The notes below the pieces were generated by a model. That model worked only from the letters and a program-made list of their open reading frames with translations, did no database searches and was not told where the DNA came from. Below, piece after piece: positions 9,259-55,141 of a stretch of DNA of 64,000 bases. Both the position numbers and the translations under genes were made by a program. Source of the DNA: an uncultured Verrucomicrobiae bacterium (GTDB lineage Bacteria; Verrucomicrobiota; Verrucomicrobiia; Chthoniobacterales; JAFAMB01); NCBI GenBank assembly GCA_963813025.1, contig CAWEXO010000013.1, positions 224,001-288,000 on the forward strand. The letters run 5' to 3'. Numbering within the stretch: the first letter of the stretch is position 1; the number at the start of each line of letters is the position of its first letter.

Positions 9259-9588
9259 GGTCTGTCGGACTCTGGAAATCGTAGGATGCCATCAAGCGTT
9301 TGGTCGCGCGAGCGCTAGAGATCGTCTCAGAATGCCGCACTGTCCGGTGGCGGTAGGGCGAAAATTTATTTGAGCCGGACGCTTGGTGAGCCACCCGTCC
9401 CAGATGGCTCCGCCTTCGCCAAGGCTGTGGCGGACACGTCAAACAAGTTCTCGCCTGGCGCTCGTCCGGCAAGGCGGATCGCCCTATCGGGCTCAGGACA
9501 AAAGAGGCCTTGGGATATCCCTCCAACCTCTCTTCCGAACCATAGCTCGATTGCGCGCTCTACAGATTGCCCAAAGTCCGATAGACCC
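9259..9588. mobile_element. Full-length nested palindromic MITE-like element, centre inverted relative to the 53.8 kb copy, with a 30-nt insertion
   Basis: Imperfect terminal IRs ggtctgtcggactctggaaatc / gattgcccaaagtccgatagacc; collinear with 53785-54100; no coding capacity. Confidence 0.8.
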
Positions 9589-13577: not shown

Positions 13578-13819
13578 CGGTGCGTCGGACTTTGGAAGTC
13601 GCTGCAAGATGAAGGTGGATGACAATCTCGAAAATGTCTCTGGCTAGAAGTGTCTTTGGGCCTGTGCCGTTAGGGCGAAAATTCATTCGAGCATTAGCGA
13701 GAACTTGTTTGGGTCGTCTGGAGCGCGTGGCTGCCGCAGATTCCGGCTCGAACGAGTCTTCGCCGAAGGCTCCTCCTTCGCTAAAGCTTCGGCGGACACG
13801 TCAAATGAATTCTCGCCCT
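13578..13819. mobile_element. Diverged copy of the nested MITE-like repeat, with a 30-nt insertion and interrupted by IS110
   Basis: gtcggactttggaa...tagggcgaaaattcattcgagc...gcgagaacttgtttg...aattctcgccct; continues as accggcgc at 15142. Confidence 0.8.
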
Positions 13820-13833
13820 TGTACCTTGCCCCA

Positions 13834-14060
13834 CCAATTTTTTTTCCCTTTTAAAGCCGCCCGCAAGGGCGGAACTCTGGAGGTGAAGAACTTGGCCGAG
13901 GAGGGTGGAAAACTGCCTCGCCCAAAGGTCGGTAGAACCTGTCCGGTAGATTAGTCCACCCTTCCTCGTGCCGCACCTGCATAAGACCGTACCGTATCTT
14001 AGGCCGTTCCAAACAGGGTTGGAACATAAGCCGTGTTCACAAGGCTCTGTCAGCAGGCGC
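13834..14060 (+). ncRNA. Predicted bridge RNA (5' hairpin, target-binding loop, donor-binding loop); ends approximate
   Basis: Hairpin ccgccc-gcaa-gggcgg 13857-72; stem 13897-909/13955-68 enclosing cctcgccca (13916-24) and ccggtag (13943-49); stem 13973-80/14053-60 enclosing accgtatct (13991-99) and acaag (14039-43). Confidence 0.85.
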
Positions 14061-14113
14061 GCGCCCAAGCGCTTCATCAAACAAAGAACCAATTCAACGC
14101 GAATTCCTGTCTG

Positions 14114-15124
14114 ATGAAAAAACGCTACTGCATGGGTATTGATATGGCAAAAGCAAGCTTTGACTTTTGCCTGCTCTCCAAGAATGGCACTCGCCTGTGG
14201 CGGGGAAAGTTCAGCAATGATGCGACCGGCATTGGAGCATTTTTAGCCCAACTCCAGGCCCGCTCTTGGCCGCTCTCCCAGATCCACTTCGCCCTGGAAG
14301 CCACCGGGGTCTACGGGAAGAGATTGATCGCCGCTCTGCACCAAGCAGGCTTGGCGGTCAGCGTGCTCAATCCCGCCCAAGTCAAATACTTTGCTTTCTC
14401 GGTCCTGCGCCGCACCAAAAATGATCGGGTTGATGCGGCCATCATTGCCCAGTTTTGTCTGGAGCGAAAACCACTGGCCACTCGGCCGCTGCGCCCCCTT
14501 GAGGAAGAATTCAAACTGCTGGTGCGGGAGCGCGAAAGCCGGGTTGGCGAGCTCATCCGGGAACAGAACCGGGTGAAAAAAGACCCTTACCCAATTGCGC
14601 TGCCCGAGCTTGTCAGCCAACAGCGTGGCCAACGACTCGCCCAGCTCAAGAAAGAAATCGCTCAGCTGGAGTCGGCCATCTTCGGCTTAGTCGCGGCTGA
14701 TCAGGCTTTAAGCCGCCAAAGCCAACTGCTGTGCTCTATTCCCGGCATTGCCCAGCTCACGGCCGCCAAGCTGCTGGCCGAGCTGGCCGGTAAAGAGTTC
14801 CAATCGGCTCGGCAGTTGGCGGCCTATGCTGGGCTGACTCCTTCTGAATTCCGTTCCGGTGTCTCGCTCTACGGCAAAACCACCCTGTGCAAAATCGGCA
14901 ACCCTTTCCTGCGCAAAGCACTCTATTTGCCGGCCGCCGTTGCTCGCCGCTGGTGTAAACCCATCCAGCAATGGGCCGCAGGTCTCGAGTCACGCAAGCT
15001 CCACTCCCTGGCTATCCGCGGTGCCGTCATGCGAAAACTCCTGCACATCGCCTTCGGTGTTCTCTCTCACCAACAACCCTACAATCCTAACCTGGCCCGC
15101 CATTCCTTAAAGCAATGCCCTTGA
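14114..15124 (+). CDS. IS110 recombinase/transposase (DEDD RuvC-like plus Tnp domain), 336 aa
   Basis: GIDMAK, LEATG, KNDRVDA (DEDD intact); SIPGI, QLAAYAGL-P-RSG (catalytic Ser), GNPFLRKALY. Confidence 0.95.
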   Translation: MKKRYCMGIDMAKASFDFCLLSKNGTRLWRGKFSNDATGIGAFLAQLQARSWPLSQIHFALEATGVYGKRLIAALHQAGLAVSVLNPAQVKYFAFSVLRRTKNDRVDAAIIAQFCLERKPLATRPLRPLEEEFKLLVRERESRVGELIREQNRVKKDPYPIALPELVSQQRGQRLAQLKKEIAQLESAIFGLVAADQALSRQSQLLCSIPGIAQLTAAKLLAELAGKEFQSARQLAAYAGLTPSEFRSGVSLYGKTTLCKIGNPFLRKALYLPAAVARRWCKPIQQWAAGLESRKLHSLAIRGAVMRKLLHIAFGVLSHQQPYNPNLARHSLKQCP

Positions 15125-15999
15125 CATCCAAGACCGTATCTACCGGCGCGGAGTCGTTTAAGCTTACCGCTTTATGCGCTGGCATCGGCTTTTGGTTATT
15201 TACTGCCGGACTGACGTCCGCGCAGTGGCAGCCACCGGCCGATCTGAAAAGTGTGCCGGTGCGACAGGACTGCGCGCGAACGCATAACGGAATCGGACTG
15301 TCAATTCAGCCCTCAGTGCTCTACCCCAACGGAGTCATTTTCTTGTGCCCGGAGAGAGCACAAGCAATTGATCGGGAACGCCCGGGTGCATCCTACTTTT
15401 TCCGGGTGCACGAATACGGTCATCTGGCGCTCCATACGCGGAGCGAGCCGGCGGCCGATACCTGGGCGGCTGAACAGCTGAGCCGCACTAAGGCGGGTCG
15501 CGCAATCATCAAGGAAGCGGCGCTCCACTTTGTCGATGAGGTTGACAGGTTCGATCCCAGGTATGGAACCGGCCTGGACCGAGCTCTCCGGATCTCGGTT
15601 GCCGGGCGAATTCCGCGGCAAGAATGGCCTAAACGCGTCAGCGATTATAGCAGGGTAGTAGCCGACGCGATCAAGCAAGGCAGAATCGTTCGTCTTCAGC
15701 TCAAGTCCGGATATGCTGACTCAGCAGAGATGATCGTGACGCTTGACCATCAGCCGCTTGGGTTCCTGTCAAACCGATCAGGGCTGGTGCCACTCACCAT
15801 TCCGCCGCTTGTGCCGGGCCACCACAACATGGAGTTCTCGGATGTCTGGCTTTACCACGCGGAACAGGGTGGGGGTCGAACAGAAGTTGCCCGCAACCTC
15901 AGCGCAATTGCTCACTTCGATGGCGGTACAGCCACAACGCTGCTCGTGCAGTTGGATTTCGACGGCCAGAAGCTAGCCGTAACCGCATCCGCACTATAG
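15115..15999 (+). CDS. Secreted hypothetical protein with HExxH metallopeptidase-like motif; start codon lies inside the IS110 right end
   Basis: Signal-like segment ending LTSA-Q; HEYGH followed by E-AD-WA. Confidence 0.6.
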   Translation: MPLTSKTVSTGAESFKLTALCAGIGFWLFTAGLTSAQWQPPADLKSVPVRQDCARTHNGIGLSIQPSVLYPNGVIFLCPERAQAIDRERPGASYFFRVHEYGHLALHTRSEPAADTWAAEQLSRTKAGRAIIKEAALHFVDEVDRFDPRYGTGLDRALRISVAGRIPRQEWPKRVSDYSRVVADAIKQGRIVRLQLKSGYADSAEMIVTLDHQPLGFLSNRSGLVPLTIPPLVPGHHNMEFSDVWLYHAEQGGGRTEVARNLSAIAHFDGGTATTLLVQLDFDGQKLAVTASAL

Positions 16000-53784: not shown

Positions 53785-54100
53785 GGGCCTGTCGGACTTT
53801 GGAAATCTGTAAGTACGCCATCAAGCGATTGTTCGCGCGAGGGCTAGAGATCGTCTCAGAATGCCCCACTGTCCTGCGCCGGTAGGGCGAAAATTTATTC
53901 GAGCCCCAGGCGAGAACTTGTTTGAGCCATCTGGAGCGGGTGGCTCACCCAAGCGTCCGGCTCAAACAAGTTCTCGCTAAGGCTCGAATAAATTTTCGCC
54001 CTACCGGCGCAGGACCAAAGACGCCTTGGGACATCCCTCGAACCTCTCTTCCGAACCATAGCTCGATTGCGCGTGCTACAGATTTTCACAGTACAGACGC
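53785..54100. mobile_element. Best-preserved copy of the nested palindromic MITE-like element, with two empty IS110 target sites
   Basis: Perfect 35-bp IR (53871-905/53981-54015) enclosing a perfect 19-bp IR (53910-28/53959-77); outer ends match 9259-9588. Confidence 0.85.
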
Positions 54101-54713: not shown

Positions 54714-55141
54714 AAAATTGCAAGTGTCGGTGCTAATGCCAGTGGACAACTGGCACTAGCACCGTGAAGAAAGCGGTTCGCATAAAGAGATTGTCTCGCA
54801 ACGCCCGAGGTCGGTAGGGGCTCTCGTTCGACCTCCTCAATGTTGAATCACGTCTCGATCTGGACGAGCGGGCCGCCTTGGCAAGGCTACGGCGCGCCCT
54901 CCGGTCAAGCGTTTGAGCAACTCCATATCCCCCCGACGAACGCTTGTCCGTAGTCGGGAGCTCATCCAGGAGCTCATCCCTACCGCTCCTCGGTGCGGCT
55001 CGAATGAAATTCTCGCCCTGCCGGGACAGGTCCTAAGCAAGCCTGAAGCCGGTCAAGTCCGCACAACCCGCTCGCCCCTGCCGCTGCCATTCCCAAAGGT
55101 CACTCCTTGCCCCAACGGCAATCTGACGTATGGGAATTTGA

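Follow-up and report, generated by a model that had tools for sequence, protein, structure and literature searches.

A probable bridge-RNA-guided insertion sequence of the IS621 type in a soil Verrucomicrobiota genome

Some mobile elements choose their insertion sites with an RNA that they encode themselves. Does the genome of an uncultured Verrucomicrobiae bacterium hold such an element, and do the guide-like strings in its non-coding end correspond to the sites that it occupies? The question is raised by a locus in a 64,000-nucleotide stretch of DNA, called the window here, which covers C13:224001-288000 (contig and positions) of a 4.4-Mb assembly of 16 contigs that is 80% complete. Window positions 13820-15141 carry an insertion sequence of the IS110 group, a class described as RNA-guided in 2024, when bridge RNAs were predicted in 85.7% of IS110-group elements and guide covariation was reported on thousands of pairs (PMC11208160). 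The element is very probably a complete, autonomous member of the IS621 type that is guided by a bridge RNA. This reading rests on its anatomy, its catalytic residues, multiple copies at one site, covariation of guides with target and donor, and homology of the RNA to that of IS621.

The element, its copies and its insertion site

The element measures 1322 bp including the right CT core, and its boundaries are set by seven full-length copies with unrelated outer flanks. The original prediction, made from the letters of the window, had placed two CT cores, the element bounds and a set of guide strings at particular positions, and all of them were located exactly (Table 1). The ATG at 14114 is preceded by a non-coding left end of 294 nt, and the stop codon is followed by a right end of 17 nt. 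This is the arrangement of the IS110 group and the reverse of that in the IS1111 group. The inverted repeat comprises only 3 bp, namely AAG (15130-32), which adjoins the left donor half, and its inverted partner CTT at 13825-27. There are no long terminal inverted repeats, and a short subterminal inverted repeat has been described for the class (PMC11208160).

A DNA search of the assembly collected the genomic copies. The seven full-length ones are 99-100% identical, every one has an open 336-amino-acid frame, and they differ from the window copy at 4-11 bases. An abundant palindromic repeat carries all seven, each inserted at the same base. Wherever the copy ends can be read, the left flank is ..TT[C/T]TCGCC-CT and the right flank ACCGG.., while the outer flanks diverge; CT stands on both sides of all copies, and two left flanks are one base off each (..TCGCT-CT and GTGTTCGCC-CT). 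Twelve genomic insertion sites agree with the match in the target loop. The objection that other copies might lie in unrelated sites fails, since apart from these two one-base exceptions all of them occupy the same TT[C/T]TCGCC-CT-ACCGG site.

The joined 15-mer that represents the empty site is found in the genome at 82 places exactly and at a further 128 with one mismatch, against 0 exact and 2 one-mismatch occurrences of a reversed control pattern. The target repeat units are near-perfect palindromes of ~130-180 bp; each arm carries the site, oriented opposite to that of the other arm, and 17 pairs of neighbouring sites are 70-150 bp apart. The element itself lies in such a repeat between genes. 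The orthologous empty locus was not found in the same-genus genome G001, where the palindromic repeat alone matched, at 18 places; the empty sites were therefore taken from paralogous repeats of the element's own genome. Empty repeat units are also present in the window (53879-54007, 9350-9490 and 55013-55024), one of them with exact sites in both arms.

Guides and their covariation with target and donor

Within the left end, CCTCGCCCA (13916-24) agrees with the left target plus core (TCTCGCCCT) at 7 of 9 positions, and CCGGTAG (13943-49) is the exact reverse complement of CTACCGG (7/7). The donor-loop strings match the circle junction at 9/9 positions for the left guide and 5/5 for the right guide (ACAAG against CTTGT). 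The string ACCGTATCT at 13991-99 is identical to the right end at 15133-41, and these are its only two occurrences in the 64-kb window; 0.13 occurrences per window would be expected by chance, and two occurrences were seen in 0 of 100 shuffles.

The decisive test of the reading is whether guides change together with target and donor across relatives, and they do. The relatives comprise 22 loci from species genomes and 52 from metagenome contigs. A left-end profile was found in 71 of the 94 loci searched (20 in the element's own genome and 74 from elsewhere), and the covariation set holds 66 loci, with five identifiers that duplicated counted genomic copies removed (L009, L015, L016, L018 and L020). 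At 44 of these 66 loci the right flank can be read along with the right target guide, and these loci collapse to 16 distinct pairs. Read as reverse complement, the five non-core bases of the guide agree with the pentamer that follows the core at 70 of 80 positions. When guides were permuted among sites the score was 42.4±3.9, and none of 100,000 permutations was as high as 70. Ten of the 16 pairs are perfect, and the right-side sites covered include ACCGG, ACCGA, ACCGT, ACCAA, ACCTG, ACAAG, ACGGG, CCGGG, TCGGG and TTGTG.

The left target guide gives a similar picture. Here 48 loci yield 27 distinct pairs that match at 155 of 189 positions, compared with 124.8±4.4 in permutations (0/100,000 as high as 155); each score is the better of two registers, a freedom that the permutations shared. 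Variation on the donor side is small among relatives. Two relatives with a visible right end carry the guide ACCCUAUCU and both end in ACCCTATCT, and two others with the guide ACCGUGUCU retain ACCGTATCT, with which a G-T pair with the bottom strand is still possible. The original prediction had held that loop mutations should alter specificity; the natural loop variants of the relatives, accompanied by matching changes in their insertion sites, approximate such a mutation test and speak in its favor.

Three further observations concern the same guides and junctions. In four separate lineages (L081-L088, L110, L011 and L019) the right target guide shows the same G-to-C change (..GCUAG). Such guides place C against C two bases past the core, and their insertion sites retain ACC... 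The left junction of L095 (~1690-1720) has three tandem copies of CCTTGTATCTT, which combines the core with the opening bases of the left end. The left junction of L087 reads ..TTTCGCCC-CT, with one extra C compared to its sister insertions.

Bridge RNA, recombinase and likeness to IS621

The folding of the left end was compared across relatives. The loci contain 44 distinct left ends, of which 27, picked for diversity and not at random, were aligned. Their RNAalifold consensus consists of a 5' hairpin, a stem closing an internal loop, an inner hairpin, and a second stem system closing a second loop. The 5' hairpin (13857-72) has six pairs, is paired in 99.4% of cells and is nearly invariant, and the outer stem of the target loop has 16 pairs, five of them with changes on both sides. 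All four guide segments are unpaired in this consensus. Across its 44 pairs, 96.4% of 1185 cells hold standard pairs, against 93.5±0.3 in shuffled alignments (0/500 shuffles as high). Two-sided changes occur in 9 of the 44 pairs, a count reached by 3 of 500 shuffles, and sliding the partners by 1-3 columns leaves 0-2 two-sided pairs; the consensus is derived from the same sequences on which it is scored, and kinship among them inflates such pair-count tests. The single-sequence fold of 13820-14113 has a free energy of -99.6 kcal/mol (z = -2.5). The original prediction had described two internal loops with the guides inside them and not in stable stems, and the consensus agrees, placing the guides in internal loops between stems with compensatory changes. 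An Rfam 15 scan of 13600-15400 returned no bridge RNA family, its sole match being sR32 at a chance-level E of 6.7.

The protein bears out the DEDD and serine residues that had been called intact. It matches PF01548 (9.3e-32, 110.4 bits against a cut-off of 29) and PF02371, the C-terminal Tnp domain with its conserved serine (5.1e-22). Of the proteins with solved structures it is closest to the IS621 transposase (8wt6, 3.2e-46), followed by the ISCro4 transposase (9t56, 4.5e-44), and the GID, EATG, D..VDA and SG motifs align. The composite active site of IS621 is described as D11, E60, D102, D105 and S241 (PMC11208158). In the alignment, where the numbering of the solved chain is native +2, the equivalents D10, E62, D104, D107 and S248 are all identical to the IS621 residues, S248 being the S of RSG aligned with the S of ESG. 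The recombinase is accordingly predicted from these alignments to combine a DEDD RuvC-like domain with a Tnp domain that supplies a catalytic serine, and to be catalytically active. The exact 336-amino-acid protein, as translated from the ATG at 14114, was not found in a large protein collection.

For comparison with IS621 itself, an E. coli copy annotated as an IS110-like element IS621 family transposase (L155) was taken from a tblastn search of plasmid records; the recombinase described here is 35% identical to E. coli copies annotated as IS621 family. The two elements share the domain pair and catalytic residues, a long left end and a short right end, the CT core, and a 5' hairpin followed by target-binding and donor-binding loops. 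At the flanks of L155, ..ATCAGGC-CT is followed by TGTAT.. and ..ACAGTAT-CT by ACGTG... Its left end reads in order AUCGGGCCU, a hairpin ending in AACCUGU, UGCGUAG and then AU, with ACAGUAUCA and GCAAGG further along, an order identical to that of the element here at near-identical spacing. In both, the right target guide lies between AACCUGU and a following AU. The donors are nearly identical (ACCGTAT-CT-TGTAC here and ACAGTAT-CT-TGTAT in L155), and both elements insert in a palindromic repeat between genes. Of the two strings that the original prediction had likened to IS621, AACCTGT is indeed present in the IS621 left end, but ACAAGGCT is not, as IS621 reads GCAAGGTT there.

The likeness extends to the RNA. 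A covariance model (R1) built from the 27 trimmed Verrucomicrobial left ends (166 positions, 27 pairs) matches L155:440-582 with 26.2 bits and, on a rough calibration, an E of 1.6e-6, with the guides in register. It also matches the left ends of distant Deinococcus, Rhodanobacter and Undibacterium relatives and of metagenome contigs, and in the element's own genome it finds 14 places, all of them known copies or derivatives. The elements differ in their target sequence and in their hosts, a soil Verrucomicrobiota here, which bears out the predicted distance from E. coli. The inner hairpins of both loops are longer in the element here. In addition, the base that mismatches the core T belongs to the left target guide here and to the left donor guide in the IS621 record. 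This ninth-position A was considered as a new feature and rejected: its counterpart in the left donor guide of IS621 is an unpaired linker A, so that it falls within the known range, and the published guide length is 8-9 nt (PMC11208160).

Other relatives can be placed around this pair. IS622/ISCro4 of Citrobacter rodentium, the second-best solved relative, has the same architecture; it is 88% identical to IS621, and hence as distant from the element here as IS621 is, and has been engineered for human cells in a study that tested 72 orthologues there (Perry et al. 2025, 10.1101/2025.05.14.653916). ISPpu9 and ISPpu10 of Pseudomonas putida are IS110-family elements described as present in several copies, all in repetitive extragenic palindromic (REP) sequences (PMC12288879; 10.64898/2026.03.19.712850); they belong to other lineages and are likened by their published description only. 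REP targeting is classical for IS621 and ISPpu9. The IS1111 group uses the same recombinase family and the same RNA-guided principle, but is described as carrying its RNA in a long right end with long subterminal inverted repeats, in contrast to the 17-nt right end and 3-bp repeat found here. An IS1111-type element, with its RNA in the right end, was rejected because the right end is only 17 nt long.

A mechanism can be drawn by homology with IS621 (PMC11208160, PMC11208158). The left end would encode a bridge RNA of ~200 nt, to which the recombinase would bind and whose 5' hairpin would be followed by one loop that binds the target and one that binds the donor. One loop would pair with both strands of TT[C/T]TCGCC-CT-ACCGG in the arms of the palindromic repeat, and the left and right donor guides would pair with ACCGTAT-CT-TGT of the joined ends (circle ACCGTAT-CT-TGTAC). 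The serine of one protomer and the DEDD site of another would cut after CT, and strands would be exchanged at the CT core. In IS621, handshake dinucleotides 3' of the right guides are reported to pair with positions 6-7 of the other DNA (PMC11208158). Candidates assigned here by position only are AU after the right target guide, which fits donor positions 6-7 (AT) and would pair with them after top-strand exchange, and GC after the right donor guide, which fits only at target position 7, where its G would pair with C.

Across the circle junction, TTGACA (15121-26) and TACCTT (13822-27) would lie 17 bp apart, and in the circle they may drive both the bridge RNA and the recombinase. The junction of the IS621 record has TTGCAG and TATTAT, likewise 17 bp apart and at the same distances from the core, and for IS621 a promoter that spans the junction, its -35 box supplied by the right end, has been described (PMC11208160). 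By analogy, the element is predicted to be transcribed, to form circles, to catalyze its own recombination and to be programmable.

Table 1. Features of the element and its insertion site, in window coordinates
Feature	Position	Strand	Basis or remark
12-mer resembling the target (1 mismatch), opposite arm of the interrupted palindromic host repeat	13667..13678	-	
Left target half TCTCGCC	13811..13817	+	sequence and copy flanks
CT core, left copy	13818..13819	+	sequence and copy flanks
TACCTT, -10-like hexamer	13822..13827	+	sequence
Bridge RNA 5' hairpin CCGCCC-GCAA-GGGCGG (predicted)	13857..13872	+	consensus fold
Target-binding loop module (predicted): outer stem, internal loop, inner hairpin	13894..13972	+	fold and consensus fold
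Left target guide CCUCGCCCA	13916..13924	+	7 or 8 bases match left target + core C; last A opposite core T
Inner hairpin, target-binding loop	13927..13939	+	consensus fold
Right target guide CCGGUAG	13943..13949	+	reverse complement of core + right target
AU at the place of the target-loop handshake guide	13950..13951	+	complementary to donor positions 6-7 (AT); by position
Donor-binding loop module (predicted)	13973..14060	+	consensus fold and single-sequence fold
Left donor guide ACCGUAUCU	13991..13999	+	9/9 to right end + core
Inner hairpin, donor-binding loop	14002..14032	+	alignment of left ends and copies
Right donor guide ACAAG	14039..14043	+	reverse complement of core + TGT of left end
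GC at the place of the donor-loop handshake guide	14044..14045	+	G can pair with target position 7 (C), second base cannot; by position
Recombinase gene, 336 aa (amino acids)	14114..15124	+	open frame aligned with relatives
TTGACA, -35-like hexamer in right end, overlapping the stop codon	15121..15126	+	sequence
Left donor half ACCGTAT + right CT core (15140-41)	15133..15141	+	
Right target half ACCGG	15142..15146	+	sequence and copy flanks

Alternative readings, derivatives and significance

Several observations weigh against the reading of the element as a working, bridge-RNA-guided insertion sequence. At TTC sites the left target guide matches only 6/7 of the non-core left target and at TTT sites 5/7, and the A in its ninth place mismatches the core T. 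On the right, 6 of the 16 guide-flank pairs are imperfect: CAGGT at ACCAG, CCGCT at ACCGG and TCGCT at ACCGA each match at 4/5, TAGCT at ACCTG and at ACCTT at 3/5, and TCGGT at ACAAT, in L122, at 2/5; one G-to-C change at one guide position is common to four of the six. In the minimum-energy fold of the naked RNA, 13913-17 pairs with 13945-49, so that 5 of the 7 bases of the right target guide are paired; the guide part of this helix is lost in relatives carrying other guides. A consensus promoter and terminator scan of 13700-15300 found nothing, and no sigma-70-type promoter was seen inside the integrated element. A C after 14030 (window 14030-14031), in the donor-binding loop, is absent from the window copy and the copy on contig C4. 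Finally, the evidence is at the level of contigs, the bridge RNA and the circle being predicted here from DNA sequence.

One alternative is a recent burst that has since stopped, leaving an element that is intact but silent, its RNA and recombinase made only from the promoter of a circle junction that no longer forms. The lack of a promoter-like site inside the integrated element fits such an end, as does the genome of a sister species of the same genus (79% complete), which has 0 matches. Yet very recent movement is indicated because the seven frames are open with only 4-11 differences, and IS621 is itself reported to be weakly expressed from integrated loci and to excise inefficiently (PMC13626964), so that weak expression appears to be the normal state of active members. 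This alternative is rather unlikely.

The missing C suggests another possibility, in which the family is active but the window copy and its C4 twin have a weakened bridge RNA and depend on RNA or protein from the five sister copies. Indeed, the 14030-31 stretch holds three bases in each of these five full-length copies and in the aligned relatives. The shortened form, however, has probably moved since the deletion arose, because it is present at two loci that differ at only 4 bases; the guides and the open frame of the window copy are intact, and the stretch lacking the C corresponds to a linker in the published description of IS621. Dependence of the window copy on its sisters is accordingly improbable. 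That the protein alone chooses the site, the matches between left end and flanks being by-products of shared ancestry of ends and repeats, is scarcely credible: CT is common to target and donor, the repeat is abundant enough for chance matches and kinship inflates the shuffle tests, but 13 different right-guide pentamers are matched by complementary flanks of their own (perfectly in 10 of the 16 distinct pairs), the recombinases stay 48-79% identical at sites as different as ACCGG, TTGTG, CCGGG, ACAAG and TCGGG, and the mechanism has been demonstrated biochemically for IS621 (PMC11208160, PMC11208158).

A complete, bridge-RNA-guided element of the IS621 type remains by far the preferred reading. 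Close relatives, at 72-77% protein identity, lie in metagenome-assembled genomes labelled Verrucomicrobiae, Verrucomicrobiota or Chthoniobacterales, one of which is, by matching coordinates, a same-family genome of the genome search. Matches were found in 7 of 24 genomes of the same family and in none of 16 genomes that belong to the order but to other families; the sole same-genus genome had none, though the palindromic repeat is present in it. On the evidence of contigs, one of three soil-metagenome runs (X1) contains 0.48 of the sampled words.

The genome also contains altered copies. The one at C8:36968-38210 has lost 27 codons in frame from the coiled-coil part of the recombinase and retains a 309-amino-acid frame. 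In the copy at C9:67089-69145, element positions 296-1010 are replaced by 1449 bp with two frames of 110 and 345 amino acids, whose arrangement resembles that of another, two-gene insertion sequence. Further remnants comprise four shorter derivatives of a sister element and one fragment. Two of the derivatives, C15:123618-124627 (1010 bp, L010/L016) and C9:218161-219171 (1011 bp, L011/L015), are 99.4% identical to each other and occupy distinct sites of the same repeat. Their identity to the element is 90% over positions 1-541 and 81% over 850-1322. Both have a right end and an intact left end carrying both loops, and their recombinase gene lacks ~300 bp; a full-length parent of this sister element was not found in the assembly. 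Shorter derivatives at C12:154618-155247 (~630 bp) and C14:420560-421123 (~510 bp) keep the bridge-RNA region and are the best covariance-model matches in the genome. Across the whole genome (G000) there are 40 PF01548 matches, which include several other IS110-family lineages (for instance, sets with 431- and 467-amino-acid frames).

Around the right end (window 15115-15999), a downstream frame of 285 amino acids starts like a signal peptide and gave no Pfam match. An ATG within the right end, at 15115, shares its reading frame, as would an ATG of the repeat arm, at 13805, once the empty site is rebuilt. A Pfam scan of four neighboring frames gave only TauE and a sub-threshold TrbI, neither of them relevant.

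It is possible, though doubtful, that the derivatives with a defective recombinase and a retained bridge RNA have been moved in trans. If the 1010- and 1011-bp forms moved after their deletion, the recombinase of the element described here would have served a foreign bridge RNA, and the pair would make a natural two-part system showing how much RNA-protein divergence is compatible with joint function.

The architecture found here is the one published for IS621, and knowledge of the mechanism is unchanged. Among the papers from 2023 onwards listed by a literature search, none deals, by title and abstract, with this orthologue or with bridge RNAs of Verrucomicrobial members. What the locus adds is a cleanly delimited IS621-type recombinase from soil Verrucomicrobiota, distant from the solved IS621 and ISCro4 proteins. 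It comes with its natural target, a multi-copy record of site choice, and relatives whose target loops have been naturally rewritten (13 right-guide pentamers). It may thus offer an extra orthologue for tool screens, together with a small natural data set on mismatch tolerance.

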